NCBI GenBank assembly: GCA_963678775.2
Contig: CAXXGR010000008.1
Span: 272,632 to 296,631, forward strand
Origin: Candidatus Kapaibacterium sp.
GTDB lineage: Bacteria > Bacteroidota > Ignavibacteria > Kapaibacteriales > UBA2268
Direction: 5' to 3'
DNA: 24,000 nt
How positions within the stretch are numbered: position 1 is the first letter of the stretch; every line of letters starts with the position of its first letter. The notes beneath the pieces are model-generated. The model had not been told where the DNA came from. It made no database searches and saw only the letters and a program-made list of their open reading frames with translations. Below, piece after piece: positions 357-19,866 of this stretch. A program made the translations under genes and the position numbers.

Positions 357-1676
357 ATGAATGAGCTGTTCCCTTCATCAAATCCTAAACAGGATAAGTC
401 TTATCAGCCGCTTGCTGAAAGGATAAGGCCAAGAACTATTGACGAAATTTTTGGTCAGGAGCATCTTGTTGGTGACGGAGCTCCTTTGCGAGTGTTTATG
501 CACAGAAAGCAGTTTCACTCCATTATTTTCTGGGGCCCTCCAGGCACCGGCAAAACTACTTTGGCTTTGCTAATTGCAGAGTACGCTGACACTGATTTTA
601 TCAGACTTTCCGCTGTGGAAGCCGGAGTAAAAGATGTCCGCGAGGTTATCTTAAAGGCAAGCCAAAGGCTCAAGTCAGGTAAACGCACTCTACTTTTTAT
701 AGATGAGATCCATAGGTTTAACAAATCGCAACAGGACGCTTTGCTACATGCGGTTGAAAATGGTATTATTATTCTAATTGGTGCAACTACTGAAAATCCA
801 TCATTTGAAGTAAATTCTGCCTTGCTTAGTCGCTGCCAGGTATATAAATTAAAAAGCCTTAGCGAAGAGCAGGTACTAAGACTAATAAATCATGCTCTCG
901 AAAAAGATGAGATATTAAAAGCTGCCGGCACAGAAATAGAAGATAAAGAGTTCCTCGTCAGTATTTCCGGTGGAGATGCTCGCACTGTGCTAAATGCTAT
1001 AGATTTAGCTTTTAAACTTGCCGAAAAGAAAGACGACAAGGTCATTTTGACAAAAGAATTATTCCATAAGGCTCTTCAACAAAAAACTACCATTTATGAT
1101 AAAAAAGGCGAAGAACACTACGATACTATTTCAGCCTTTATCAAATCTATGCGTGGTTCGGATCCTGATGCAGCTCTGTTCTGGCTTGCCAAAATGTTGG
1201 AAGCAGGCGAAGATCCTAAATTTATCGCACGCAGATTAATCATATTTGCATCCGAAGACGTAGGAAATGCAGACACTTATGCTATTACTCTGGCTGTTTC
1301 TACATTCAAGGCAGTGGAAGTAATTGGTATGCCTGAGTGTAGAATTAATCTTGGTCAGGCTGTAACATACCTTGCCTCCTGCCCTAAATCAAATGCAGCA
1401 TATCTGGGCATTAATAAAGCAATGGCAGATGTAAAAAGCGGTGCGGACGTATCAGTACCCATGCACTTAGGCAATGCCCCAACTAAATTTATGAAAAACG
1501 AAGGTTATGGCAAGGGCTATCAATATCCACACGACTTCCCGTTCCACTTTGTCCAGGAAAATTACTTCCCAGACAGTATCAAATATAAACAATATTATAT
1601 TCCGGGTGAGTTTGGCAAAGAAAAAGTCTTTTTAGAAAGACTAAAACTTATGTGGCCTGATAGATTTGAGGAGTAG
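357..1676 (+). CDS. rarA: replication-associated recombination protein A (RarA/MgsA AAA+ ATPase)
   Basis: Walker A GPPGTGKTT, Walker B LLFIDEIHRFNK, ATTENPSFE, and a C-terminal MgsA-type helical region (HYDTISAFIKSMRGSDPDAALFWLAKMLEAGEDPKFIARR). The track start is TTG 345. ATG 357 (MNELF...) with GAGG 6 nt upstream is preferred. Confidence 0.93.
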   Translation: MNELFPSSNPKQDKSYQPLAERIRPRTIDEIFGQEHLVGDGAPLRVFMHRKQFHSIIFWGPPGTGKTTLALLIAEYADTDFIRLSAVEAGVKDVREVILKASQRLKSGKRTLLFIDEIHRFNKSQQDALLHAVENGIIILIGATTENPSFEVNSALLSRCQVYKLKSLSEEQVLRLINHALEKDEILKAAGTEIEDKEFLVSISGGDARTVLNAIDLAFKLAEKKDDKVILTKELFHKALQQKTTIYDKKGEEHYDTISAFIKSMRGSDPDAALFWLAKMLEAGEDPKFIARRLIIFASEDVGNADTYAITLAVSTFKAVEVIGMPECRINLGQAVTYLASCPKSNAAYLGINKAMADVKSGADVSVPMHLGNAPTKFMKNEGYGKGYQYPHDFPFHFVQENYFPDSIKYKQYYIPGEFGKEKVFLERLKLMWPDRFEE

Positions 1677-1775
1677 GGGGACATAATGCCCCTTTGATAA
1701 AAAATACAGAATATGTATTTTCGTTTTTCTGAATAATATTACTTATTTTGATTTAGTGAAATATTTTCCCACACC

Positions 1776-1807
1776 ACTCGCTTTTGCGAGTCACCCCTCA
1801 AGAGGGG
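1776..1807 (+). other. two adjacent GC-rich hairpins (ACTCGC-tttt-GCGAGT and CCCC-tcaaga-GGGG) directly upstream of the ATPase gene
   Basis: Inverted repeats read directly at 1776-1791 and 1794-1807. No T-tract follows, so this is not a canonical terminator. Function unknown. Confidence 0.5.
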
Positions 1808-1828: not shown

Positions 1829-2914
1829 ATGGAATTCATTTTTATCAAAAACTATAAGGCTATAAAGTTATTAAAAATAGATAGCCTTAGTAGAGTAAAT
1901 GTTTTTACCGGTAAAAACAATACAGGCAAATCCTCTTTATTAGAGGCAATCGCACTATTGGCTTCCCAAGGAAGTTTAAAATGGATAAAAATTATTCTTG
2001 AATTACGTGGAGAAAATGTTGATAATGACTTTTTTGACTTTGATAGAAATTATAGAATATTAGCTTCTCTTTTTTCAAATAGGAACAATGCTGTTAATTT
2101 TGAAAATATAATTACTATTGAAAGTAGCAACAAATCTTTCTTTGCACGATTTGTCTATTATGTCAAAAACTACACGCGTGCGATGATAAACGGCAAAGAA
2201 GTTTTCGGAGATGTTACAACCATTTTAAGCAAAGATGAAGAAGATGAAGATAAAAAAGTTGGTTTAGAGATAGGTAATGATGAAGATGCCCATCTATTGG
2301 AATTTGATACCAATATGTTAAAAATCAACAGTTTATCTCAAGAATCTACTCCCATACATTTCATAAATTCTTACGGGAAAGCTTTAGAGGAATCATCAGT
2401 ATTGTGGGATAAAATAACTCTGACTGATAAAGAAGATTCCGTGGTAGAAGCACTTCGAATTATTGATCCTAAAATACAGAGGTTGTCTTTTATTAGCGAA
2501 GAATATTCCAATAATAAAAGATACCCAGTTGTTAAACTTGAAGGAAGTAAGGAAGTCTTGCCACTTCAAAGTATGGGTGATGGTATAAATCGTATTCTGA
2601 AGGTGATTCTGGCAGCAGTTAACTGTGAAAATGGAACATTGCTTATTGATGAGTTTGAAAACGGATTACATCATAGCGTTCAACAAAAACTATGGGAAGT
2701 CATATTTAGTATTTCTAAAAAGTTAAATATACAGGTGTTTGTTACTACTCACAGCGAAGATGCAATTCATACATTTGCAAAAGTTTTAGAAAAAGACGAA
2801 ACTAATGAAGGTAGTTTGTATCGATTAGCTTATCGCAATGATAATCTTACCGCAAATCTATTTACAGAAGAAGAAATAAAAAATGCAGCTAAACTAAATA
2901 TAGATTTGAGGTAG
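1829..2914 (+). CDS. stand-alone ABC/SMC-like ATPase (AAA_21/AAA_15-type), predicted conflict-system ATPase
   Basis: Walker A GKNNTGKS (aa 28-35), signature-like LQSMGDG, Walker B LLIDEFENGLH and H-loop VTTHS. A long insert separates Walker A from the signature motif. No transporter partner is present. Confidence 0.8.
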   Translation: MEFIFIKNYKAIKLLKIDSLSRVNVFTGKNNTGKSSLLEAIALLASQGSLKWIKIILELRGENVDNDFFDFDRNYRILASLFSNRNNAVNFENIITIESSNKSFFARFVYYVKNYTRAMINGKEVFGDVTTILSKDEEDEDKKVGLEIGNDEDAHLLEFDTNMLKINSLSQESTPIHFINSYGKALEESSVLWDKITLTDKEDSVVEALRIIDPKIQRLSFISEEYSNNKRYPVVKLEGSKEVLPLQSMGDGINRILKVILAAVNCENGTLLIDEFENGLHHSVQQKLWEVIFSISKKLNIQVFVTTHSEDAIHTFAKVLEKDETNEGSLYRLAYRNDNLTANLFTEEEIKNAAKLNIDLR

Positions 2915-2915
2915 T

Positions 2916-3524
2916 ATGGATAAGATTCTTTTAGTAGAAGGAAGTGATGATCTTCATGTTTTTTCAGCACTATTTGAAAAATATAAGTTACCTGAATCAT
3001 TCAAAATTGAAGATACAAAAGGTATTTCAAATCTATTAGCTTCAATCCCTATTTATATCAAGGCTCAGCAAACTCATATAGGAATAGTTGTTGATGCAGA
3101 TGAAGACTTGCAAGCCCGTTGGCAAGCTGTTACTAGTCAATTAGAACCTTTTGGTTATAGAATACCTGCTTCTTCGAATCCTCAAGGATCTATATTAAAA
3201 AATACTGGTTATCCGACCGTTGGAATATGGGTAATGCCAAATAACCAATTGACAGGCATGATTGAAGATTTTATGGCATATCTTATTCCTGAACATGATT
3301 TGCTGCTGGAAAAAGCAGGTGTAATTTTAGATCAGTTAGAAGCAGAAGGTCTAAACAAATACAAGGCAATTCATAAATCAAAAGCTAAAATCCATACTTG
3401 GCTTGCTTGGCAAAAGTCACCCGGAACTCCTTTGGGATCAGCTATCACAAAGAAATACTTCGATGCGAACAATAAAGAAGCACAAAAATTTATTCAATGG
3501 ATTAGGGATTTGTTTGACTGTTAA
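2916..3524 (+). CDS. Toprim-like (DUF3226/DUF4435/OLD-nuclease-like) protein partnered with the ABC-type ATPase
   Basis: ATG lies 1 nt after the ATPase stop, with GAGG 4 nt upstream. N-terminal ILLVEGSDD (Glu8) plus IVVDADED (Asp60, Asp62) match the Glu + DxD Toprim signature. Family assignment is by eye only. Confidence 0.6.
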   Translation: MDKILLVEGSDDLHVFSALFEKYKLPESFKIEDTKGISNLLASIPIYIKAQQTHIGIVVDADEDLQARWQAVTSQLEPFGYRIPASSNPQGSILKNTGYPTVGIWVMPNNQLTGMIEDFMAYLIPEHDLLLEKAGVILDQLEAEGLNKYKAIHKSKAKIHTWLAWQKSPGTPLGSAITKKYFDANNKEAQKFIQWIRDLFDC

Positions 3525-4305: not shown

Positions 4306-4376
4306 ACACTATTATATGTATATATCAAGGTTATGTTTCACAATATACCAATTTTTAAGTTGATTTGGTATATTGT
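4306..4376 (+). promoter_or_regulatory. NrdR-box-like palindromes / inverted repeat in the nrdJ leader
   Basis: ACACTATTATATGTAT (4306-4321) and TCACAATATACCAATT (4338-4353) resemble the NrdR box acaCwAtATaTwGtgt, and their centres are 32 bp apart. ACAATATACCAA (4340-4351) and TTGGTATATTGT (4365-4376) form a perfect 12-bp inverted repeat. Confidence 0.4.
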
Positions 4377-4411: not shown

Positions 4412-7400
4412 ATGAAATTTAGCCGACTATTTACGAAAGATGGTGTAAGTCCATTCGACTTATTTAAATATACAAAACGGACTTCTGTTCTTAGGAATCC
4501 CGATGGTTCTGTCGTATTTGAAGCAAATGATGTAGAAGTTCCTACTTCATGGTCTCAAATGGCAACGGACATTCTTGCTCAAAAGTACTTCCGAAAAGCG
4601 GGCGTACCTCTTTTTGACGAAACAGGCAAACCGGTTTTAGATAAGGATGGCAATCAAGTGCTTGGTAGTGAAAAATCTATCAAACAAGTGGTTCACAGAT
4701 TAGCTAACACTTGGAGAACTTGGGGACAAGAGCACAACTACTTCGATACAGAAGAAGACGGAAAAATATTCTATGATGAACTTGTTTATATGCTTGTAAA
4801 TCAAATGTCTGCTCCTAATTCGCCTCAGTGGTTTAACACTGGCATATTTAACGAGTATAATATAACAGGCAACAAACAGGGACATTACTATGTAGATCCT
4901 GTTTCTAAGAAGATTAATAAGTCTAAAGATGCATACTCTCGCCCTCAGCCTCATGCTTGCTTTATCCAGTCTGTGGATGATGACTTGCTAAACGAAGGCG
5001 GTCTTTTTGATTTGGCTACCAGAGAAGCACGTATATTTAAATATGGCAGTGGTACAGGTACTAATTTCTCTAACATTAGAGCGCTGGGCGAACCTCTTTC
5101 CGGTGGCGGTATTTCTTCCGGTTTGATGAGTTTCCTAAAAATATTTGACAGGGCTGCCGGAGCTATCAAATCAGGTGGTACTACTCGCCGGGCTGCTAAG
5201 ATGGTTATTTTAGATATTGACCATCCGGATATTGAAGAGTTTATTACTTGGAAAGCCCGCGAAGAAGAAAAGGTTGCCGCTTTAGTTGCCGGCTCCAGAA
5301 TCAATAAAGCATTTTTGCAAGCGATAGTAGAAGAAGCTATTAGCAACGGCACCGACCGTAAAAATAATCAGCGACTAAACACTCTTATCCAAAGAGCTAT
5401 ACACAGAGGAACTCCTCTTAATATAATAGACAGAACATTAGATTTAGTTTCTCAGGGATTTACTTCTCTTGATTTTGAAGATTTTGATACTTATTACGAA
5501 GGCGAAGCTTATCTTACTGTAAGTGGTCAAAATTCAAACAACTCAGTACGTATCACTAATGAATTTATGCACTGCGTTGAAAATGACGAAATGTGGGAAT
5601 TAAGATACCGTACCACAGGTGAAACGGTCAAAGCTATCAGAGCTAGAGATCTCTGGAACAAAATTAATATGAGTGCTTGGAAAAGTGCTGACCCGGGTGT
5701 GCAGTATGACTCTACTATAAATGAGTGGCACACTTGCCCGGAATCAGGCAGAATTAATGCGTCTAATCCTTGTAGCGAATATATGTTCTTAGATAACACT
5801 GCTTGCAACTTAGCCAGTTTGAACTTAATGAAGTTCTATGATGAAACGACGGGCAGTTTCCTGATTGACGAATATTTACATGCTATTCGTATATGGACTG
5901 TTGTGCTTGAAATATCTGTACTTATGGCTCAGTTCCCTTCTAAAGAAGTTGCACAAAAAAGTTTTGATTTCCGTACACTGGGCTTGGGATATGCAAACAT
6001 CGGCACATTGCTTATGGTAAATGGCATTCCTTACGATTCTCCTGAAGCTTTGGCTATGACAGGTGCTTTGACTGCTATGCTTACAGGCCAGGCTTACGCG
6101 ACTTCTGCGGAAATGGCGAAAGAGTTAGGTACATTTGACAAATATGACATCAATAAAGAACACATGCTCAGAGTAATTCGTAATCATCGCCGTGCGGCTT
6201 ACAATGAAGCTCCGGCAAAATACGAAGACCTTACTGTAAGACCAATGGGTATCAATCCAAAATATGTGGATGAAAAGCTGGTTGCTGCTGCAAGAGCTAC
6301 ATGGGACAAAGCTTTGGAATTAGGCGAAGAGAATGGTTACAGAAACGCTCAGGTTTCTGTGATAGCTCCTACCGGAACTATTGGCCTGGTAATGGATTGT
6401 GACACTACCGGCATAGAACCAGACTTCGCTATTATCAAATACAAAAAACTTTCAGGCGGCGGTTATTTCAAAATTGTTAACCAATCAGTACGCAAGGCTC
6501 TTTCTAAATTGGGCTACAGCAACAAACAGATTGAAGATATTGAAAAATACTCAAAAGGTAATGCCACTTTAGCCGGGTGCCCTTATATTAATAAAAACTC
6601 TCTTGAAGCAAAAGGCTTTTCAAAAGAGCAGTTAGACGCCATCGAGCCTCAACTTGCATCTGTCTTTGATATTACTTTTGCTTTTAATAAATGGTCACTT
6701 GGCGAAGATTTCCTAAAATCATTAGGATTCTTCGAAAGCGACTATAACGATTCTAAATTCAATTTGCTAAAACGACTTGGATTTACTGATCAGCAAATAG
6801 ATGCCGCTAACGATTATGTATGCGGGACTATGATGATTGAAAATGCACCTCACTTGAAAGAAGAGCATTTGACTATTTTTGACACTGCCAACAAATGCGG
6901 TAGAAAAGGCACTCGCTTTATCCACCACATGGCTCATGTCAGAATTATGGCTGCTGCTCAACCTTTCATTTCAGGCGCTATCTCTAAAACTGTAAATATG
7001 CCACAGGAAGCATCTGTTTCTGAAATTGGCGACGTTTACATGACTTCATGGAAGTCTATGGTGAAAGCTATTGCCCTCTACAGAGACAGCTCTAAACTTT
7101 CACAGCCTTTGAATACTACGAACTACTCGGATTTGGATGAAATTATTACTCTTGGTGATGAAAACACATTAGACGAAACTAAAGGACCAAAAGAGGTTCA
7201 GGAAATTATTGCTGATAGAATTCATTACAAACTTGTACGCCATAAACTTCCTAAAAAACGCTCCGGTCACATCAGAGAGGCTTACGTTGGTGGGCATAAA
7301 GTCTTTTTGAGAACGGGCGAATATGAAGATGGTTCTCTAGGTGAACTTTTCATCGATATGTACAAAGAAGGTGCTTCATTCCGTGGCTTGCTGAATAGTT

Positions 7401-8087: not shown

Positions 8088-8441
8088 ATGTACTATTTAA
8101 TCAATCCTTTTAAAAATATTTTCAATTATTCCGGTAGAGCATCCAGAAAGGAATTTTGGATGTTTCAGCTTTACTATTTTATTCTATATATCTTACTGAT
8201 TTTCCCTTTAAGTTTCATAATTATGCTATTTGATACTGATATAGATAATCTTTCAGATATATTTTTCTTTGGTTTCCTTATATTACACAGTATTGTTAAT
8301 TTATCTATATCTGTTAGAAGAATTCACGATTTAAATAAAAGTGCGAGTTATTTGTTTTATAGTTTTATTCCTTTGGTGGGACATACAATAGACGAACCGC
8401 ATTATAAGTTCAGCAATAAAAGCAGGTACACTTTATGGTAA
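8088..8441 (+). CDS. DUF805-family membrane protein with aberrant/truncated C-terminus
   Basis: It has the N-terminal GRASRKEFW motif, hydrophobic segments and the SVRRIHDLNKS loop motif typical of DUF805 (YhaH/YhaI-like). After IPLVG the sequence diverges, lacking the usual hydrophobic segment and the G.N.YG.DP end. GAGGGA lies upstream of the ATG. Confidence 0.6.
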   Translation: MYYLINPFKNIFNYSGRASRKEFWMFQLYYFILYILLIFPLSFIIMLFDTDIDNLSDIFFFGFLILHSIVNLSISVRRIHDLNKSASYLFYSFIPLVGHTIDEPHYKFSNKSRYTLW

Positions 8442-9272: not shown

Positions 9273-9728
9273 GTTTCGTATTTTTTCTAGCTATTATTTT
9301 TTTAATAGCTATTGACCCCGTTGGCACTTGGGGACCAAAATATAATCAAGATGTTATTTCACAAAATATTGGCGGTAAATTAGTTCTTGATATATGTTAT
9401 ACAGCAGATCACCATGATTGGGATTATAACGAATTATATTTTTCCTGAGGCTCTTGCAGATGATGGTCATTCTCTAGGAATCAGTATAGGAGTTATCATT
9501 TTTATGGTAATTCTATTGCCGGACTTTTCCATAAATCTTTCTCTCACAGTAAGAAGACTTCATGATATTAACAAAGAAGGTACTTATGTGTTATGGAGTT
9601 TTGTTCCGCTTGTAGGTGGAATAATACTATTGATGGCATTGATCGAATCAGGTGATATAGGCAAAAACTACTATGGTGAAGATCCAAGAGATATAAGAAG
9701 AAAGAAACAAAATATAGAAAATTTTTAA
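9236..9728 (+). pseudogene. chimeric/frameshifted remnant: a TM segment and the start of the unrecognised domain joined to the C-terminal half of a DUF805 protein
   Basis: Two overlapping ORFs lie in different frames. ORF 9236-9448 encodes FVFFLAIIFLIAI...VISQNIGGKLVL, which resembles the TM plus TISQSIGGELLY block of the 17450-18547 protein. ORF 9387-9728 encodes only the DUF805 C-terminal half (TVRRLHDINKEG...VPLVGGIILL...GKNYYGEDP) and lacks the GRAxRxEYW N-terminus. Confidence 0.5.
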
Positions 9729-9768: not shown

Positions 9769-10015
9769 CTCATGAACTAATTTTTCATATCTGTGTACTT
9801 ATTTTATGTCAGGGAAATAATACTTATCCATTCGACATATTTTCTTTTTCAAAGGGGCTTTTAAGTAATCTTTATTCCTTATGCTGGTACTCAGGATTTA
9901 GGAGGTGTATGCTTGTATCCGAACTTCACATGAGGCAGGTATTTTTTTGATTTGAATAACAATGCAGTAGGTGGTTGTAAATACTATTGTTGTCAATTAT
10001 TTTCAGAGGAAGATT

Positions 10016-11362
10016 ATGCAAAGATTTGATTTTAAAAACAACGTCATGTTCAAAGTTGTAGTTATTGCAGCCCTTATTATTATCCTTCAGTTCCCTAATG
10101 CTTTGGTAAGATCTCTTATTCATGAAAGGGAAGAGATTCATCAGAATGCTGTTATGGAAGTCAGCAAAAAATGGGGGACCGGGCAGACTATCACCGGGCC
10201 TTATATTTCTATTCCTTATGACAGAGTTATCACTAATAGGGGTGCTTATACTGACACTACTGCAAGCATCGAGATTAAAAAAGAGTTCTTATACATTCTG
10301 CCGGAAAAGCTTAAAATCAATGGAAAACTTAAGCCAGAAGAGCGCTACCGTGGGCTTCATGACGTTGTAGTATACGAATCGGATATTAAGCTGGAAGGAG
10401 CATTTAAACCATTGGAACTGTCTGCTATGGACTTAGATATAAGACGCGTTCATTTCAACAAAGCGCAACTTAATGTCGGGATTTCTGATTTGAAAGGGAT
10501 AGAAAAGCAGATAAAGCTAAAGTGGAATGACACACAGGAGTTCTTTAATTCCGGCTTAACTACTAACGACATTGTCCGCTCCGGCATAAGCGTACCTATT
10601 GATGTTTCTGACACCTATAGCAATGGCTATAATTTTTCACTTAGTCTGGATCTAAAAGGCAGTCAGGACGTATTTTTTGCACCTCTGGGTAAGACTACAG
10701 ATGTATACCTCCAATCATCATGGAAGCACCCAAGCTTTGCCGGAGAGTATCTGCCTGACTCAAGGACTATCAATGAAAATGGCTTTAAAGCCCACTGGAA
10801 CATACTCCACCTAAATAGAAATTATCCGCAAATGTGGACTAATGATAAATATAAAGTTGGTAAAAGTCTATTCGGTGCTAATCTGTTGCTCGCCGTTGAC
10901 AGATACAAAAAATCCGACAGGGTTGCCAAATACTCAATCTTATTTATAAGCTTAACTTTTATGGTATTTTTCTTTGTAGAGATTTTAAATAAATCGTACA
11001 TACACCCTATTCAGTATTTACTTGTAGGTACGGCGCTAATAATATTTTATACTTTGCTGCTATCATTCAGTGAGCACATGCTATTTAATGTAGCTTACCT
11101 GCTTGCATCACTGCTCACTTTACTTCTGATTTGCGGATATACCTTGGCGATACTCAAATCTAAGCAAGTCAGTCTTCTGATGCTTGGCATATTGACAATA
11201 CTTTACGGTTTCATCTTTACTATTATCTCTATGCAGGAATATTCACTAATAATCGGCAGTATAGGCTTATTTATGATACTTGCCATTGTGATGTATTTCT
11301 CTCGCAAAATAGACTGGTATGAAATAAAGCTAGGTGGAAAATTGAAACAGGATATAGAATAA
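10016..11362 (+). CDS. creD: cell envelope integrity inner-membrane protein CreD
   Basis: It has an N-terminal TM, then FPNALVRSLIHEREEIHQNAVMEVSKKWGTGQTITGPYISIPY, a CreD-type periplasmic domain start, and a C-terminal cluster of TM helices. The track start is GTG 9971. ATG 10016 with AGAGGA upstream is preferred. Confidence 0.85.
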   Translation: MQRFDFKNNVMFKVVVIAALIIILQFPNALVRSLIHEREEIHQNAVMEVSKKWGTGQTITGPYISIPYDRVITNRGAYTDTTASIEIKKEFLYILPEKLKINGKLKPEERYRGLHDVVVYESDIKLEGAFKPLELSAMDLDIRRVHFNKAQLNVGISDLKGIEKQIKLKWNDTQEFFNSGLTTNDIVRSGISVPIDVSDTYSNGYNFSLSLDLKGSQDVFFAPLGKTTDVYLQSSWKHPSFAGEYLPDSRTINENGFKAHWNILHLNRNYPQMWTNDKYKVGKSLFGANLLLAVDRYKKSDRVAKYSILFISLTFMVFFFVEILNKSYIHPIQYLLVGTALIIFYTLLLSFSEHMLFNVAYLLASLLTLLLICGYTLAILKSKQVSLLMLGILTILYGFIFTIISMQEYSLIIGSIGLFMILAIVMYFSRKIDWYEIKLGGKLKQDIE

Positions 11363-11482: not shown

Positions 11483-11680
11483 ATGAGTCTTTCAATAAAT
11501 CTTGAAATGAAAATGCACAACGATTCTAATTTAGAACAAAACCAAACACCTACAAACAATGCATCAAAGAAAGTTGATTTAGTTACACTTTTAGATGATA
11601 TAGACCAAGGTGAAATATATAAAGAGTTCGAAACCGGTAATGATGTTGGTAATGAGATTTTAGAAACGGAAAAAATATGA
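11483..11680 (+). CDS. small acidic hypothetical protein (65 aa)
   Basis: AGGAAA lies 6 nt upstream of the ATG. The stop overlaps the next start (ATGA at 11677-11680). The C-terminal half is Asp/Glu-rich. No family recognised. Confidence 0.5.
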   Translation: MSLSINLEMKMHNDSNLEQNQTPTNNASKKVDLVTLLDDIDQGEIYKEFETGNDVGNEILETEKI

Positions 11681-12612
11681 AGGAAATTTTCAATTTAATT
11701 TATATCATAGCTATACACATTGTATGTTTGCCAATATTATATGTTTTTATATATTTTACTTTTACGAATACTCTTAGATTATTCTTGATTTCGGATATTA
11801 GATTGAAACCAATCTTATCTAAACCTTTTGGTATTGTCGGCATTTGTTTAGTTGAGTATTTTCTGATATTAGCGGATATACCAGATGAAATTACGAACCT
11901 ATTTATGTTTCTAAATGTAATTTTAGCTACTAATATTTTATTCTACAAAATTATTCTAAGTGCAAGAAAAAAAAATGGAAGACCTTTTTTAATTGCACAT
12001 TTAGGAACTGCAGTTGTTCTATTGCAGACATTGATTGCATTTACCGTTTCAGCATATTTAGATAAAACCAGTCCAAATGAATACTACGACGGTAAACCTA
12101 CGATTGATATCATAAAGCAGGATATTGGAGGATATTTAAGAGTTGAAAAAGTATCAGATATCTATGATTCTTGGAATATCAAGACTAAATACATGTATAT
12201 TACTCTTTCCAACGATACTTTGAAACTTGGTGAAGGATACTTCTATCAAATTTGGCAACCACCTATTAATCAGATTTATAAATACAAAAACTGGTATTTA
12301 TTGCCTTCATCAGAGCGAAAGGAATCAAAATTGATAATGTGGAATTTGGAAACTGAAGCAATAAAAAATTGGATTCTATCAGAAGATGATATTATTGACA
12401 CTGAAATATGGCAAGATAACGAACCAGACAGTTATGAGAATAATACAGACAAATCTTGTAATTTTATATCAAAAATTAAAGACAACATCGTTTTTATTAG
12501 ATACGAATATAAATCTTTAGACTCTGAAATTGAAGAAGATTCCCGTATACTAAAATATAAAATCGATCAGCAGACTGGTGATTTAACTTTGATTGATGTC
12601 ATTGAGGAGTAA
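11677..12612 (+). CDS. membrane protein: about 4 TM helices plus an unrecognised soluble C-terminal domain (shared with the 17450-18547 product)
   Basis: Four hydrophobic segments lie in aa 1-128. Three blocks in aa 131-311 are collinear with the C-terminus of the 17450-18547 protein: IIKQDIGGYLRVEKVS vs TISQSIGGELLYNMKIT, NWYLLPSSERKESKLIMWNL vs EWFIIPVNEDLSAQLLMYNF, and ILKYKIDQQTGDLTLIDV vs YVVYQIDEESGELSYYDM. Confidence 0.65.
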   Translation: MKEIFNLIYIIAIHIVCLPILYVFIYFTFTNTLRLFLISDIRLKPILSKPFGIVGICLVEYFLILADIPDEITNLFMFLNVILATNILFYKIILSARKKNGRPFLIAHLGTAVVLLQTLIAFTVSAYLDKTSPNEYYDGKPTIDIIKQDIGGYLRVEKVSDIYDSWNIKTKYMYITLSNDTLKLGEGYFYQIWQPPINQIYKYKNWYLLPSSERKESKLIMWNLETEAIKNWILSEDDIIDTEIWQDNEPDSYENNTDKSCNFISKIKDNIVFIRYEYKSLDSEIEEDSRILKYKIDQQTGDLTLIDVIEE

Positions 12613-12614
12613 AA

Positions 12615-13136
12615 TTGGATTTATTTTGGGAAATAATATACTGGTCAGGCTTGCATCTTGCATTTGCCTATCCCCTATTCCTTTTTTTTAAGATAAGCAT
12701 TACTATACTTAATGCAATTGAAGCAGAAGGTTCAAACAAAAGGAGACAGAGAATTTATTTGATTCTGTGTTGCTTAGCTGTGCTTACAATCGAAGCTCTG
12801 GTCTTCACTAAAGCCCTTCCACATTGGCTGATGATGCTACAGATATTTATAAATCTGATGATTCCCAGTTTCCTGATTTACAGCAAGATGCACGACAAAC
12901 AAAGAGAGCAAAAATTGAAAGAAAATGGGAATGTGTTTATCATAACTTTGATTTATATTCCACTAATTGCTCTCAGCATGGGTGTGGCATTTGCTGTTAC
13001 TATATTTATGATGGACTTAACTAATAAAATGGATACTAGAAACTGTGAATTTCAAATCATTCTGCCATCTTACCCGCCATTTACAAGGGAGGGTCGGTTT
13101 TCCATAGGAAAAGCGGGGTGGGTTTTAACGCTCTAA
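12615..13136 (+). CDS. membrane protein (about 4 TM), tandem paralogue of the TM module of the preceding gene, without the soluble domain
   Basis: TTG start with GAGGAG 5 nt upstream, inside the end of the previous gene. TM3 plus the basic loop (LQIFINLMIPSFLIYSKMHDKQ...) parallels LFMFLNVILATNILFYKIILSARKK of the upstream protein. The C-terminal 40 aa are non-homologous and overlap a G-rich structured stretch. Confidence 0.5.
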   Translation: MDLFWEIIYWSGLHLAFAYPLFLFFKISITILNAIEAEGSNKRRQRIYLILCCLAVLTIEALVFTKALPHWLMMLQIFINLMIPSFLIYSKMHDKQREQKLKENGNVFIITLIYIPLIALSMGVAFAVTIFMMDLTNKMDTRNCEFQIILPSYPPFTREGRFSIGKAGWVLTL

Positions 13137-13241
13137 ACTATCCCTCCAAAAAACCACGTACACACTCTCTTATTTTATGCATGCCTGTTAAATTTTGCGT
13201 ATATTATAAAATATCATTAATTATATAATTACACAAAAAAC

Positions 13242-15806
13242 ATGGCAAAAGATAAATATATCAATGATCAAGCTGCAACTACCGATGACTTCGGTACGCA
13301 CGCCAATATAGCCACCACCCTACTAGACACAATCGCAGATGAAGATAATAAGCCAATGACTATAGGTCTGGAAGGCTCCTGGGGCTCAGGTAAGTCCACT
13401 GTTGTGAATTTGATGTTTGAGGGAATAAAGAACGGTTTTATCGAATCTAAAACGGCTGAAGAAAACTCTGATTCTCAAAAAAATGAAACTTGGAAAAACA
13501 TCGAATACTTTTATATAGATGTTTGGCAGCACGAGCACTCTTGTATTAAGAGGGCAATTTTGCATGAGATGATAAAGACTTTGAAAAAAAAAGAAATTTA
13601 CAAAGGTCTTGATCCAATAGAAAAAGAACTGCACGGAACAACTACTAAGACATTCGTCACACCCTTTAGTATAATTCTTGCTTTTGCTGTAGTTGTAATT
13701 CCACTTATCGCAGCAATTTTGAATAATGCAGATTTAAATAATCTAACCTGGGAATTTACTGGATCGTTCGAAATAAATCTGATTGTTAGTATTGTATTAC
13801 TTGTTGCTTCTATTGGTGTTTTATTTAAATGCACTCCTAAACTCCTAAACATAACTGATAGATTTAAAAATAAAGATAACAAAAAAGAATTCCTTCTAGT
13901 TGAACAAACAACTACGACCTTTGAAAATTCTTCAATCGAGTTCAGTAGACACTTTAATGATATATTAGAAGTAGTAAATGGACAAAACAGTAAAAAGAAA
14001 ACCCTAATAGTCTTCGACAATCTCGACCGCATAGATGAAAAGAAAGCCAAAGAAATGTGGGCAGAGCTTCAAGTATTTATGCAGTATAGAAACCCGGGGG
14101 CAACTGAAGAAGAAAAAGAAGAACGCCCGTGGATTATTATTCCTTATGATTTAGATGGAATAAGGAAGATTTGGGGAGAGGAAGATGAGAAAAAGGCTTA
14201 CTCTAAAGAAGAACTAAATAAGAGACTTGAACTTCTTATCAATGATCGTGAAAGTAATCCAATTAAATCTTTTTTAGATAAAACTTTTTCTTTTAGAGTT
14301 CATGTGCCAAAGCAAATTACTAGTTACTGGAATTTTTACTTAGACAAATTTTCATGCAATTCCCCAGCGTCTATTCCTAGCATCGAATATCATATCACCT
14401 TAAAAGAAGCAGAAGATAATGAAGACTATTTTAGTGACGATAAAATTTTCAAAACAATTAAAAAAGTAATAGAATTTAAAGATCTTCAAAGCATAAGTAA
14501 ACCAATAAAACCGCGGGAAATAAATGATATTTTAAATACAGTAATTTTCTATAGAAATTTGATCTGTAAAATTAAAAACCACTCAATTTCTATTGAATCA
14601 TTATGCTTCTTTGCTTATCACTATTCTAGAAACGGACATTTGACACAAGAAGACAAACTTAATGTTGCCTATATCTCTGATCAGCAAATTTTAAAAAATA
14701 ATTTTCCAGTATATAAAGAAATAGACTATAATTTAAATTTAGATGCGATAGACTATCAACTTGACTTAACGAGTACAATAGAAATTACAATGGTTGACTT
14801 AATCCCAAACTATAAAAACAGTGGTAATAGATCTATCTGCTTAGATAAACTCTCTGATCTTGAAAATCAATTTAGCAATCTATTTTGGAAGAGAATACAT
14901 TCTTTTCTAACTTATGGGAATGATTTCAATACATATATCTGTTATTCTAATATACTAATGTTTTTCCACTCTAAATACAATGCATTTCATAATGATATTT
15001 ATCAGTGTTTATGTCTGCTAAATGATTTATTTATAAAGCAAAATATATCAACAATAGCTTTCAATAAATCTGGGAAAAACTACCTAAAATTAATTCATCA
15101 ATATAATATTGCAGATAACAACACAGATTTCCTCAATAAAGTCTTGAACGCATACAAAAAATGGATCCTCGAAACATGGCACAACAAAAGCAATAGTCTT
15201 GTCGATTTTAATATTTATTTAGAAATTTTTTCTATTGCAAAAATGCTTGATAAAGATTTTGTTATTAATATTAATTATAAAAACTATAATATGCTAATAG
15301 GAGCAATAATTGTACAAAAGATTATACTTCGTAACTTTTTTAACCTCGAAGAAAACAACTTTTACCCACAAAATGAGAAAACTATTGATCAAATTGGAAA
15401 AGTACGACTAACTGATTTAGTATTAGTGATTTTATTTACTAATGAATATAATAAGGAGTTTTTACAAAAGATATCTGAAGAAATATTAAAGATATTAAAA
15501 TATGCAGTAAAAAATGCTGAATACGAATCATTTGCTCATTTGTTAATAAGCATTTGGGAGTCTTTTAAAATCTTCTCACAGGCAAAAATACCAAATGATA
15601 CACCTTTGACAAATTTATTTCGAAAAGTATTATTGCATCAAATTACTTGGAAATATATTGATTTTTGTAATAATATTTTAGAGATGGAGGAGTTTAAAAT
15701 TATACCTGACATACTGGATGCTGACTCAAGTAATATCTCTGAATCCATAAAAAAAAGTGATCTAAATAGAGCTATTTTAAATCGCATAAAAATAGGGAAA
15801 CAATAG
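13242..15806 (+). CDS. KAP-family P-loop NTPase with a transmembrane hairpin inserted in the NTPase domain
   Basis: Walker A is GLEGSWGSGKST (aa 42-53) and Walker B is TLIVFDNLDRID (aa 254-265). Two hydrophobic helices (about aa 141-160 and 178-195) lie between them, as in KAP NTPases. YIDVWQHEH matches the family's conserved W after Walker A. A long helical C-terminal region follows. Confidence 0.82.
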   Translation: MAKDKYINDQAATTDDFGTHANIATTLLDTIADEDNKPMTIGLEGSWGSGKSTVVNLMFEGIKNGFIESKTAEENSDSQKNETWKNIEYFYIDVWQHEHSCIKRAILHEMIKTLKKKEIYKGLDPIEKELHGTTTKTFVTPFSIILAFAVVVIPLIAAILNNADLNNLTWEFTGSFEINLIVSIVLLVASIGVLFKCTPKLLNITDRFKNKDNKKEFLLVEQTTTTFENSSIEFSRHFNDILEVVNGQNSKKKTLIVFDNLDRIDEKKAKEMWAELQVFMQYRNPGATEEEKEERPWIIIPYDLDGIRKIWGEEDEKKAYSKEELNKRLELLINDRESNPIKSFLDKTFSFRVHVPKQITSYWNFYLDKFSCNSPASIPSIEYHITLKEAEDNEDYFSDDKIFKTIKKVIEFKDLQSISKPIKPREINDILNTVIFYRNLICKIKNHSISIESLCFFAYHYSRNGHLTQEDKLNVAYISDQQILKNNFPVYKEIDYNLNLDAIDYQLDLTSTIEITMVDLIPNYKNSGNRSICLDKLSDLENQFSNLFWKRIHSFLTYGNDFNTYICYSNILMFFHSKYNAFHNDIYQCLCLLNDLFIKQNISTIAFNKSGKNYLKLIHQYNIADNNTDFLNKVLNAYKKWILETWHNKSNSLVDFNIYLEIFSIAKMLDKDFVININYKNYNMLIGAIIVQKIILRNFFNLEENNFYPQNEKTIDQIGKVRLTDLVLVILFTNEYNKEFLQKISEEILKILKYAVKNAEYESFAHLLISIWESFKIFSQAKIPNDTPLTNLFRKVLLHQITWKYIDFCNNILEMEEFKIIPDILDADSSNISESIKKSDLNRAILNRIKIGKQ

Positions 15807-17449: not shown

Positions 17450-18547
17450 CTAATCAAATTGCATATCATAGTAGGAGAGCTCACCGCTTTCTTCATCAAT
17501 TTGATAAACTACATAACGGAATTTCTCAGGATCAGGATCTTCACCCAATTTAATATCTTTAGGATCAATCATTATAATTGATACAAGATCACCGTAAACT
17601 TCACCAATATAGAATAAAGTATTTTTTGTGATGTAAGATTTTTCTTCTCCGTAAATATTTTTGCTGATAAAATTGTAGTCTATCTTCTGTAGTAATGTTT
17701 CATCTTTAGCAAAGTTATACATCAAAAGCTGAGCAGATAGATCTTCATTTACCGGAATAATAAACCACTCTCCAAAAAGTCCCATTTCCAAGTTTTCAAG
17801 AAGAGGTTCACGTTTGCAGTTCGCAGATCCTATATAAGTAGTGTCATTTGCTTCTGAAATATAGCTAAAATCAATATTATGTTTCTTTGATAGTTGACTA
17901 CCGGTAATCTTCATATTATAAAGCAGTTCACCGCCAATTGACTGACTTATAGTACCAGTTTTATCTTCATCTACTTCAGTCATCCCGTCTTTAACCAGAA
18001 AACCAATTAAAGTAAAAAAGCCAATGACACCCAGAGCAATGACAATAGAAGCAAAAATTGTAATTAATTTTCTCTGTTTCCTGATCTTTTCTTTTCTTTT
18101 CTGTATAAAACTCTCTGTTTCTTCATCAGAATCGGAAGGATACTTATCTTTGTATGGATCTTCACCATATTGATTCTCCCCTACATCACCCGGTAATAAG
18201 TGCATAGCAAAAATACTAAATGCTCCAAAATAAGGAATAATTCCCCAAAAAATATTATACCCACTTTTACCTATATCATGGAAACGTCTGATAGATAAAA
18301 ATATATTTGCTATCATCAAAATTAAGATATAAATAGTGAGAAAAATAAAAAACACCCCACTTATAGAACTATAAGTGAATTCAGGATCATTCAGCATTTT
18401 GAATTCAACCCCAACGATATGTTTTAGAAATTGCACAATTAGGAATGGTATAAACCACGACATAAAGAAAAACAACCAGTATTCTTTTCGGGTGGCTCTG
18501 CCCTGGAAGTCAAACAATTTTTTGAAGTAAATTTTGTAGTCGTTCAT
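17450..18547 (-). CDS. DUF805 membrane module fused via an extra TM helix to an unrecognised about 170-aa C-terminal domain
   Basis: Aa 1-131 form a complete DUF805 (GRATRKEYW, SIRRFHDIGKSG, GENQYGEDP). A charged linker, a TM helix (ITIFASIVIALGVIGFFTLIGFLV) and a domain homologous by eye to aa 131-311 of the 11677-12612 protein follow. Confidence 0.75.
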   Translation of the reverse strand: MNDYKIYFKKLFDFQGRATRKEYWLFFFMSWFIPFLIVQFLKHIVGVEFKMLNDPEFTYSSISGVFFIFLTIYILILMIANIFLSIRRFHDIGKSGYNIFWGIIPYFGAFSIFAMHLLPGDVGENQYGEDPYKDKYPSDSDEETESFIQKRKEKIRKQRKLITIFASIVIALGVIGFFTLIGFLVKDGMTEVDEDKTGTISQSIGGELLYNMKITGSQLSKKHNIDFSYISEANDTTYIGSANCKREPLLENLEMGLFGEWFIIPVNEDLSAQLLMYNFAKDETLLQKIDYNFISKNIYGEEKSYITKNTLFYIGEVYGDLVSIIMIDPKDIKLGEDPDPEKFRYVVYQIDEESGELSYYDMQFD

Positions 18548-18663: not shown

Positions 18664-19866
18664 CTACTCAAACTCCATCAAAAACTTGCGCACGTGTAGG
18701 TGCTCTATACCTTTATAATTGCCATCTGCAAATGGATCCATTGATATTAGAATTTTTCTGTAATTGTCATCTATCTCAAGTAGATTTCCGAACTCTCTTT
18801 GCCTTGTGGATTCGTCTGATAGCATATAAGCGACTTGTATATAGATAGTATTATCACCTTTTTTGGAAACAAAATCGATTTCTTTATCGCCGAGTTTCCC
18901 TACATAAACATCATACTGCATAACTTTCAGATGATGATACACAAGATTCTCCAAAACTTTAGATATATCATTTATCTGATATGGTACTATTGAGTGGCGT
19001 AATCCCAAATCTTCTAAATAGAACTTTTCACCAATTTCGAATATCTTCTTGCCTGCAACTTCGCTTCTTTTTACTCTATCAGTAAAGAATACACTTTCCA
19101 AATGCGAGAGATATTCAATAATAGTTTTTGCCTGAATATTCATATTCCGTGATTTTAGAGACTTACTTATATTTTGAGCTGAAAATATATTCCCCAAATT
19201 ATCGCATAGAAAATGTATCAGATTATCAAGAAAACTAATATTTCTAATTTTATATCTTTCTACCACATCACGCAAAACGATGGAGTTGTATATGTTTTTT
19301 AAGTACTCGTAGTAAACAGCTTCATCTTTCTTTAGATTGATAAGGTGCGGCATTCCTCCATACTTTATATACTCCAATAAACTTGCATCACTATCTTCAA
19401 GCTTATGAAAATCTAAAAACTCTTTGTAAGAAAGAGAAAATATACGAATTTGGATATATCTTCCGGCAAGAAGAGTAGCTATCTCGCCCGAAAGCAGCTT
19501 GGCATTACTACCCGTGCAATAAATATCATATTTGCCTGTTGTAGAGAAGTGCCTTAACACCTTCTCAAATTGCTCTATATCCTGTACTTCATCAATAAAC
19601 AGATAGTTATTTGATTCAAAGGACTTTGCTTCTACAAACTCAATCAGAGACTTATAATCAACAATGTTATCGAACTCATAGCTTTCTTTATTGATATAAA
19701 TAATATGAGCTTCCGGGTTAGCATTTTGTATTTCATCCATCAATTGATAAAATATATAGCTTTTCCCTACTCTACGCTGACCAATAAGTACTTTTATCAA
19801 ATTAGAATCGATATAAGGTCTTATTCTTTCGATATAAATGTTACGTGATTTGAATGACTTTTGCAT
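18664..19866 (-). CDS. AAA+ ATPase of the AAA_14 + DUF4143 (COG1373-like) family
   Basis: Walker A is IGQRRVGKSY and Walker B is NYLFIDEVQ. The C-terminal region contains GDKEIDFV...IYIQVAY, typical of the DUF4143 region of this family. Confidence 0.8.
   Translation of the reverse strand: MQKSFKSRNIYIERIRPYIDSNLIKVLIGQRRVGKSYIFYQLMDEIQNANPEAHIIYINKESYEFDNIVDYKSLIEFVEAKSFESNNYLFIDEVQDIEQFEKVLRHFSTTGKYDIYCTGSNAKLLSGEIATLLAGRYIQIRIFSLSYKEFLDFHKLEDSDASLLEYIKYGGMPHLINLKKDEAVYYEYLKNIYNSIVLRDVVERYKIRNISFLDNLIHFLCDNLGNIFSAQNISKSLKSRNMNIQAKTIIEYLSHLESVFFTDRVKRSEVAGKKIFEIGEKFYLEDLGLRHSIVPYQINDISKVLENLVYHHLKVMQYDVYVGKLGDKEIDFVSKKGDNTIYIQVAYMLSDESTRQREFGNLLEIDDNYRKILISMDPFADGNYKGIEHLHVRKFLMEFE

Follow-up and report, generated by a model that had tools for sequence, protein, structure and literature searches.

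A translationally coupled ABC ATPase and DUF3226 gene pair in Candidatus Kapaibacterium: a probable horizontally acquired conflict module of the ATPase plus OLD-type Toprim nuclease class

What do two tightly joined genes encode that lie between rarA and a PAP2 gene in Candidatus Kapaibacterium sp.? The DNA analyzed here, referred to as the window, is a stretch of 24,000 nucleotides (assembly GCA_963678775.2, contig CAXXGR010000008.1, positions 272,632 to 296,631 of the forward strand), and coordinates are window positions unless another locus is named. An earlier reading of the letters alone, called the sequence-only reading below, had taken the pair for a conflict module in which an ABC ATPase is paired with a Toprim/OLD-like nuclease. 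This proposal is supported by the membership of the second protein in the DUF3226 family, by its OLD-like predicted fold, and by a patchy distribution of the pair that includes plasmids and prophages; a defence role is suggested by analogy. The best explanation, to which a probability of about two in three is given, is that the two genes form a translationally coupled conflict module that was acquired horizontally and is of the class that combines an ABC ATPase with an OLD-type Toprim nuclease, corresponding to the candidate family PDC-M38. The two open reading frames (ORFs) were located as the sequence-only reading had placed them, as was the TAG stop 1 nt before the ATG of the 202-amino-acid (aa) partner:

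1829..2914, forward strand: gene A, a 361-aa ABC-type (Rad50/SMC/PtuA-like) ATPase (ORF, profiles and AlphaFold (AF2) model)
2916..3524, forward strand: gene B, a 202-aa DUF3226 protein and putative metal-dependent nuclease effector (ORF, profiles and AF2 model)
2907..2918, forward strand: translational-coupling junction consisting of GAGG, the TAG stop, one base and ATG (read from the sequence)

The family of the gene B protein was established by profile searches. The match to Pfam DUF3226 (PF11536) scored 243.2 bits against a gathering threshold of 27 and covered positions 2-208 of the 208-position model, and residues 3-202 matched the PADLOC model PDC-M38B (PDLC04624) over positions 14-220 of 220 with an E-value of 9.2e-64. 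PDC-M38B was also matched by all 48 of the sampled gene B homologs. NCBIfam had no model for the protein, and searches of PDB sequences with gene B and with its profile gave nothing significant, with the LLVEG motif of AriB alone being returned at E ~0.8. Among the 48 family members, the recurrent profile matches below threshold were to OLD-like_TOPRIM (23 members), HEC-01B (15), AriB (11), DUF4435 (5), and Old (4), and all of the remaining weak matches were singletons.

The AF2 model of gene B has a predicted local distance difference test score (pLDDT) of 94.1 and a predicted template-modelling score (pTM) of 0.89, and it predicts an OLD-type Toprim core together with a helical region. When the model was searched with Foldseek, the top four PDB matches were all to class 2 OLD proteins from Xanthomonas and Burkholderia, in their C-terminal catalytic regions (6njx, 6njv and 6nk8 among them), with probabilities of 0.96-1.0, template-modelling (TM) scores of 0.44-0.48, and E-values of 3.5e-3 to 2e-2. 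These matches favor the Toprim/OLD-like nuclease that the sequence-only reading had suggested, and the sequence profile OLD-like_TOPRIM is also matched, at a level below threshold. The conserved elements of the protein are as follows:

2928..2951, forward strand: Toprim glutamate motif LLVEGSDD (E8, with D12 at i+4), invariant in the homolog alignment
3093..3101, forward strand: Toprim DxD motif (D60-A-D62), from the homolog alignment, at the end of model strand 54-59
3264..3269, forward strand: E117-D118, where the first helix behind the core sheet begins, proposed to correspond to the OLD metal-B Glu (Bp E508), from order and secondary structure
3381..3425, forward strand: helix K156-x3-H160-T-W-L-A-W-Q166 followed by P169-G170, from the homolog alignment

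The two motifs picked out by the sequence-only reading, ILLVEGSDD with Glu8 and IVVDADED with Asp60/Asp62, are confirmed by the alignment: among the DUF3226 homologs E8, D12 and D60 do not vary, and D62 is conserved at 90% or more. E8 follows strand 3-7 of the model and D60-x-D62 follows strand 54-59, and LLVEGSDD aligns to VLLVEG of P2 Old and LLVEG of AriB. The segment K156-Q166/P169-G170 is the most conserved part of the DUF3226 family, and its HTWLAWQ helix counts among the family-invariant elements. For class 2 Bp OLD, Schiltz et al. described machinery composed of E400, E404, D455-x-D457, T506/E508 in the first post-core helix, and K562 (PMC6755086). The invariant gene B residues E8, D12, D60 of D60-x-D62, E117, and K156 occur in the same order, with spacings of 52/55/39 compared with 55/51/54 in Bp OLD, and they are placed by the model on comparable secondary-structure elements. 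This correspondence suggests a residue-by-residue mapping of gene B onto Bp OLD, in which K156 is proposed to be the counterpart of the catalytic lysine K562.

Judged from its predicted structure, the gene A protein is a Rad50/SMC-type ABC ATPase, a kind that is common in defence systems. Its AF2 model has a pLDDT of 91.6 and a pTM of 0.90, and the nearest solved structures found with Foldseek were PtuA (Septu/retron), Rad50, SMC heads, and GajA, with E-values of 1e-13 to 1e-10 and TM scores of approximately 0.45-0.5. In terms of profiles, AAA_15 (84.5 bits) and AAA_21 (77 bits) of Pfam were both matched above threshold. Residues 5-361 matched the PADLOC model PDC-M38A (PDLC04611) over positions 6-383 of 383 (E 6.2e-92), AbiLi (PDLC02336) was matched over positions 6-340 of 340 (E 4.3e-59), and weaker, generic PADLOC matches were obtained with AriA (E 1e-25), NsnB, HEC-01A, GajA, and Old. 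The four nucleotide-binding motifs that had been read by eye are all present in the translation and conserved over 48 homologs:

1910..1933, forward strand: Walker A GKNNTGKS (G28-S35, with K34), from the translation and the homolog alignment
2564..2584, forward strand: ABC signature-like LQSMGDG (L246-G252), from the translation and the homolog alignment
2639..2671, forward strand: Walker B, catalytic Glu and D-loop, LLIDEFENGLH (D274, E275), from the translation and the homolog alignment
2744..2755, forward strand: H-loop TTHS (T306-S309, with H308), from the translation and the homolog alignment
2108..2386, forward strand: variable beta-rich insert, approximately residues 94-186, a putative trigger-sensing surface (DSSP of the model)

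Every motif residue of the ATPase is either invariant or at least 90% conserved over these homologs: G28, N30, N31, G33, and K34 of Walker A, G250 and G252 of the signature-like motif, and D274, E275, E277, N278, and H281 of the Walker B region are invariant, and M249 and D251 are conserved at 90% or more. With little or no variation at the residues of Walker A, the signature, Walker B, the catalytic Glu, the D-loop, and the H-loop, gene A should encode an active ATPase. The beta-rich insert stands in the model where AriA, Rad50, and SMC have a coiled coil, and its mean top-residue frequency is 0.39, compared with 0.66-0.75 for the catalytic lobes.

The two genes are joined as if translated together. 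The TAG of gene A occupies 2912-2914, a single base follows, and the ATG of gene B begins at 2916, with GAGG at 2907-2910, 5 nt upstream of this ATG. To see how general the arrangement is, 14 further loci, all distinct and each with a gene for a DUF3226 homolog, were examined, and the intergenic gap was measured in 10 of them. These loci are from Bacteroidota metagenome-assembled genomes, Larkinella, Crocosphaera subtropica ATCC 51142, an oscillatorian cyanobacterium, Plesiomonas, Acinetobacter and Citrobacter plasmids, and five IMG/VR viral contigs. In 14 of 14, a homologous ATPase gene (358-392 aa) lies immediately upstream on the same strand, and the measured gaps run from -4 to +13 nt. The arrangement persists at identities as low as 26-30%, with both proteins diverging roughly in step, and the genes that flank the pair are different at every one of the 14 loci. 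The DUF3226 family as a whole comprises 4,623 clusters at 50% identity (E <=1e-3), all of them standalone proteins of approximately 200-240 aa, and members of DUF3226/PDC-M38 are present in Bacteroidota and cyanobacteria as well as on proteobacterial plasmids and in prophages. No copy of the pair was found in the INPHARED phage genomes.

Several of these copies are carried by mobile elements. In Citrobacter a 6.4-kb ColE-type MOBQ mobilizable plasmid has essentially no cargo other than the pair, and on a 14-kb Acinetobacter plasmid the pair adjoins RelE/ParE genes. On the Plesiomonas replicon it lies just past P2-like tail genes, at locus L116 it is located between a type IIG-like restriction-methylase and myovirus baseplate/fibre (tail) genes, and at locus L113 it adjoins an integrase. 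The two plasmid contexts raise the question of whether the pair is an addiction module of plasmids or other mobile elements, in which the DUF3226 protein would be a toxin, the ATPase its antitoxin, and post-segregational killing the outcome, with the copy in the window being a chromosomal remnant. Such a function would be compatible with defence, because many toxin-antitoxin systems are abortive-infection systems. However, the contexts at prophage tail ends and next to restriction-modification (R-M) genes, and the origin of the PDC families in R-M, BREX and DISARM loci, point to anti-phage selection, and an ATPase with a variable insert would be a costly antitoxin unless it senses something. 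An addiction module is thus considered unlikely, and the conflict module is preferred.

Two of the other loci have neighbors that may be recorded in their own right. In Larkinella (L106 8698-15078), the pair is directly followed by a four-gene block with MksE- and MukB-like proteins, which is a Wadjet/MksBEFG-like condensin system. Systems of this kind are often anti-plasmid. In a Bacteroidota genome (L119 6160-9127), the 3' end of the DUF3226 gene shares 29 nt with a UvrD/PcrA-type helicase gene. According to a published account (PMC7049728), one OLD nuclease class has a helicase gene immediately downstream; the L119 gene may simply be a housekeeping helicase.

Was the pair acquired by this genome? 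In terms of base composition, it differs from the core genes around it. The G+C content (GC) and the G+C content at third codon positions (GC3) are 0.311 and 0.235 for the ATPase gene and 0.345 and 0.222 for the DUF3226 gene, compared with 0.406/0.351 for rarA, 0.406/0.338 for nrdJ, and 0.419/0.354 for glyA. The AT-richness relative to rarA and nrdJ that had been judged by eye thus holds once it is computed (GC3 of 0.22-0.24 versus 0.34-0.35). Comparably low GC is seen in several further genes of the window that look accessory. The exact proteins of the pair were found on one contig only. The closest other DUF3226 homolog is 72% identical and lies on a 1.2-kb contig, where its downstream neighbor is not PAP2, and beyond this homolog both proteins fall to approximately 50% identity.

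The genes that flank the pair in the window are rarA/MgsA upstream on the same strand and a convergent PAP2 gene, which is followed by a class II ribonucleotide reductase-like gene (nrdJ). A scan anchored on rarA covered 80 loci in species-representative genomes of Chlorobiota, Kapaibacteria, Ignavibacteria, and Bacteroidota, with rarA at no more than 58% identity, and neither the pair nor PAP2 was found near rarA at any of these 80 loci of other species. The best rarA match, at 58%, suggests that the host is a deep member of the Bacteroidota/Ignavibacteriota/Chlorobiota group. A metagenome scan anchored on PAP2 gave one usable syntenic relative (L081, nrdJ 73% identical). This relative retains the divergent nrdJ-PAP2 arrangement, and beyond the 3' end of its PAP2 gene it has a lolD-like gene and rplQ-rpoA-rpsK-rpsM, not rarA and the pair. 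These data are compatible with acquisition of the pair, short of proving an insertion event.

The same observations bear on the idea that the pair is a housekeeping one for DNA repair or replication restart, an analogue of RecF plus RecR that acts with the neighboring rarA. The domain composition is the same (ABC ATPase and Toprim), the pair is directly downstream of rarA on the same strand, and a weak match to RecF is seen at the ATPase N-terminus (TIGR00611 at 41.6 bits; PDB RecF at E 2e-3). However, the TIGR00611 score is far below the cut-off of 172 and comes from the N-terminal 50 residues only, and identity with RecF/RecR is ruled out because of this score. The pair is missing from all 80 rarA loci of other species, no rarA neighbor was seen at the 14 other pair loci (five of which were not inspected gene by gene), its distribution is patchy and includes plasmids and prophages, its GC3 is atypical for the host, and three stem-loops separate it from rarA. 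A repair pair of this kind is very improbable.

The intergenic region between rarA and gene A contains the following structures:

1676..1693, forward strand: G+C-rich stem-loop GGGGG-N8-CCCCC, then TTTG, directly 3' of the rarA stop (RNA fold)
1776..1807, forward strand: two neighboring short G+C-rich hairpins, ACTCGC-TTTT-GCGAGT and CCCCT-CAAG-AGGGG (RNA fold)

The sequence-only reading had reported two GC-rich hairpins ahead of the pair; the hairpins are present, and their number is three, not two. The stem-loop at 1676-1693 probably marks the end of the rarA transcript, and the strict terminator scan passed over it because its T-run is short. The neighboring hairpins occupy 1776-1791 and 1794-1807 and end 21 nt before the start of the ATPase gene, and they may serve as a structured 5' leader or as an insulator. 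The fold of the intergenic region as a whole has a z-score of -2.2, with 2 of 200 shuffles folding equally well, and each stem-loop occurs once in the window. A scan for sigma-70 promoters gave weak matches only, and the lineage may use other promoter types.

At the other end, the pair runs directly into its convergent neighbor, as follows:

3521..3524, no strand: TTAA palindrome that forms the stops of both gene B (forward) and the convergent PAP2 gene (reverse), with zero spacer (sequence)

The TAA of gene B is at 3522-3524 on the forward strand and that of PAP2 is the complement of 3521-3523 on the reverse strand, and the strict terminator scan found no terminator-like site between the two genes; the shared stop without spacer or terminator had been described correctly from the letters. 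In the syntenic relative (L081 8536-8570), PAP2 overlaps the convergent lolD-like gene by 35 nt. Because this PAP2 overlaps too, overlapping convergent ends look like a habit of the lineage and not a peculiarity of the pair. This matters for the suggestion that the pair is an inactive remnant of acquired DNA, which would fit with a promoter that could not be assigned with confidence in the sigma-70 scan, with the lack of a terminator, and with the 3' end that overlaps a convergent gene. However, both ORFs are full length for their families, all of the catalytic and family-invariant residues are intact, the tight coupling has been kept, and the overlapping end has its parallel at the L081 PAP2 gene. 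It is therefore highly unlikely that the pair is dead.

A number of points weigh against the preferred explanation, an acquired conflict module of the ATPase plus OLD-type Toprim class. The fold likeness of gene B to OLD is moderate (TM below 0.5, E 3.5e-3), its score with Pfam OLD-like_TOPRIM is 16.6 bits, under the curated cut-off of 23.2, and alignment of the family profile to the C-terminus of P2 Old with hhalign covered the first motif only (LLVEG/VLLVEG), with a probability of 31%. In the window there is no tRNA, integrase, Rfam element, or bracketing repeat that would mark an insertion, the locus lies outside any dense defence island, and the chromosomal neighbors of the pair in other genomes are mostly housekeeping genes. 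A full-text literature search for DUF3226 and PDC-M38 found no experimental test of any such pair, and HEC-01, a related candidate that pairs an ABC ATPase with a Toprim protein, gave no protection in E. coli (bioRxiv 10.1101/2024.01.29.577857).

How might such a module work? The closest system of known mechanism is PARIS, in which a hexamer of AriA sequesters the Toprim nuclease AriB until a phage anti-restriction protein triggers its release, after which AriB dimers cut tRNA-Lys and halt translation (PMC10802264; PMC12409363). OLD nucleases use the same Toprim two-metal chemistry and act on DNA (PMC6755086). By analogy with these systems, we infer a defence phenotype, sequestration by the ATPase, a trigger, and a nucleic acid substrate. 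The ATPase would be both the sensor and the regulator or inhibitor, oligomerizing through its ABC heads and holding the small nuclease inactive. The fast-evolving beta-rich insert may recognize a cue from a phage or another mobile element, and ATP binding or hydrolysis would then release or activate the DUF3226 protein. Its two-metal site (E8, D12, D60, D62, and E117, with K156 helping) is predicted to cut nucleic acid, which could be DNA as for OLD or tRNA/RNA as for AriB, and this cleavage would stop the phage from replicating or the host from growing, in the manner of abortive infection.

Pairs in which an ABC ATPase goes with a Toprim protein are a recurrent design of bacterial immunity (OLD, Gabija, PARIS, AbiL, RloAB), and the mechanism has been worked out for few of them. 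The DUF3226/PDC-M38 branch is large, with the 4,623 clusters given above, and compact, at approximately 1.7 kb. To this branch the present locus adds a clean and intact example, with confident models of both proteins and a concrete list of residues. It is doubtful whether the DUF3226 pairs represent a mechanistically distinct branch of ATPase-Toprim immunity, in which the short AbiLi-like ATPase would read a new kind of trigger with its hypervariable beta-rich insert in place of a coiled coil, and the compact 200-aa nuclease would act on a substrate other than DNA (OLD) or tRNA-Lys (AriB). If this were true, the approximately 4,600 clusters at 50% identity would amount to a large unexplored immune family.

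Other observations in the window concern repeats and more distant genes. An exact 12-nt direct repeat, ATAGATTTGAGG, is found at 1660-1671 and 2900-2911, with one copy at the 3' end of rarA and one at that of the ATPase gene. A TAG stop follows either copy within 0-3 nt, and the two copies bracket the ATPase gene alone, not the pair; the repeat is probably due to chance. A 24-nt inverted repeat with 83% complementarity lies at 1600-1623 (the 3' end of rarA) and 3403-3426 (the LAWQKSPG codons of the DUF3226 gene), and was judged to be due to chance because both arms lie in coding sequence under constraint. In the ORF list, the nrdJ-like gene starts from a TTG at 4373. Because the starting ATG of its 73% identical L081 homolog lines up with codon 14 of the window ORF (MKFSRLF, at approximately nt 4412), the real nrdJ start is probably near 4412. 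Downstream of nrdJ are three DUF805 paralogs and a CreD inner-membrane gene (8088-8441, 9387-9728, 17450-18547, and 9971-11362). A block of low GC (0.28-0.30) at 11677-15806 on the forward strand contains ORFs of 311 and 173 aa that have no family match and continues with an 854-aa KAP-family P-loop NTPase, the N-terminus of which is weakly QatA/PifA-like; this block could be a further accessory or conflict locus. Approximately 15 kb from the pair, a 400-aa ATPase with AAA_14 and DUF4143 (18664-19866, reverse strand) is a full-length match (E 9e-144) to the PADLOC candidate PDC-S01.

Which known system does the pair resemble most? The closest solved structures of the ATPase are PtuA chains (E 2.6e-13), which gives it a likeness to Septu and retron systems. 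The Septu effector, however, is the HNH nuclease PtuB, whereas the partner here is Toprim-like, and Septu is ruled out because there is no HNH partner; against the NCBIfam PtuA model, gene A scored 31.6 compared with a cut-off of 500. The OLD family (P2 Old, class 2 Bp/Xcc OLD, GajA) likewise combines an ABC ATPase with a Toprim plus helical catalytic region, and the conserved E, E/D at i+4, DxD, E, and K are found in matching order. In contrast to OLD, the sequence similarity is below threshold and no UvrD-like helicase is linked to the pair in the window, and OLD proper is ruled out because the ATPase and the nuclease are two separate polypeptides.

PARIS is similar in its two-gene operon, in which the gene after the ABC ATPase encodes a standalone Toprim protein of OLD type whose N-terminal Glu motif is of the LLVEG type, and by this analogy the pair probably shares the toxin/antitoxin-like sensor-effector logic of PARIS. 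The differences lie in both proteins. The partner here is a DUF3226 protein of 202 aa, whereas AriB is a DUF4435 protein of approximately 310 aa; the remark in the sequence-only reading that the partner seems shorter than AriB is borne out by the PDB chains (308-316 aa). The 361-aa ATPase is approximately 100 aa shorter than AriA and has the beta-rich insert in place of the coiled-coil legs of AriA. Gene B matched the PADLOC AriB model over residues 2-67 only (E 1.7e-4), it had no match to DUF4435 at E-values up to 1, and the Foldseek comparison with AriB was poor (probability 0.28, TM 0.29). Gene A matched AriA of the PDB over residues 195-311 only (E 7.8e-5), with the generic AriA/AAA_21 models reaching E 1e-25. 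The choice between a PARIS-like DUF4435 pair and an AAA_21 plus DUF3226 variant, which had been left open, is thus settled in favor of DUF3226 at 243 bits. PARIS was rejected as an assignment on the grounds of the partner family, the poor AriB fold match, and the different insert.

AbiL is similar in the ATPase, which matches the AbiLi model over its full length. The partner here belongs to another Pfam family than those of AbiL and RloAB, and no match of gene B to AbiLii (PADLOC) or RloB (Pfam) was obtained at E-values up to 1. In terms of structure, a likeness of AbiLii to the C-terminal region of class 2 OLD (6NJV) has been predicted (PMC13064643), 6NJV is also among the best PDB matches of gene B, and a phage RloB-like protein compares with gene B at a TM of 0.46. 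AbiL was rejected on the grounds of the partner, which matches neither AbiLii nor RloB, although the ATPase is AbiLi-like. It is accordingly quite improbable that the pair is a plain member of the characterized PARIS (AriA/AriB) or AbiL (AbiLi/AbiLii) systems. The full-length AbiLi match, the generic AriA matches, and the UniRef names of some homologs, which read 'DUF4435 domain-containing', speak for membership, but the window protein itself has no DUF4435 match and those of its relatives (5 of 48) are all below threshold. AbiL, RloAB, and an unnamed ATPase-Toprim pair of Nostoc have been described as distinct from PARIS and mechanistically unexplored (PMC10802264; 2026 review PMC13064643).

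The closest correspondence is to PDC-M38, the A and B models of which are both matched over their full length by genes that are adjacent, on the same strand, and separated by a 1-nt gap. PDC-M38 is listed in the supplement of Payne et al. as one of 145 untested guilt-by-embedding candidates, the PDC families having been defined from cassettes that lie inside BREX, DISARM, or type I R-M loci (bioRxiv 10.1101/2024.01.29.577857). There is no structural difference between PDC-M38 and the pair, and the copy here lies outside an R-M, BREX, or DISARM locus. Since the pair matches this catalogued candidate over its full length, its novelty is lower than the sequence-only reading had assumed. In summary, the locus leaves the existing suspicions about the class unchanged, and the pair is an addition to a catalogued candidate defence family.

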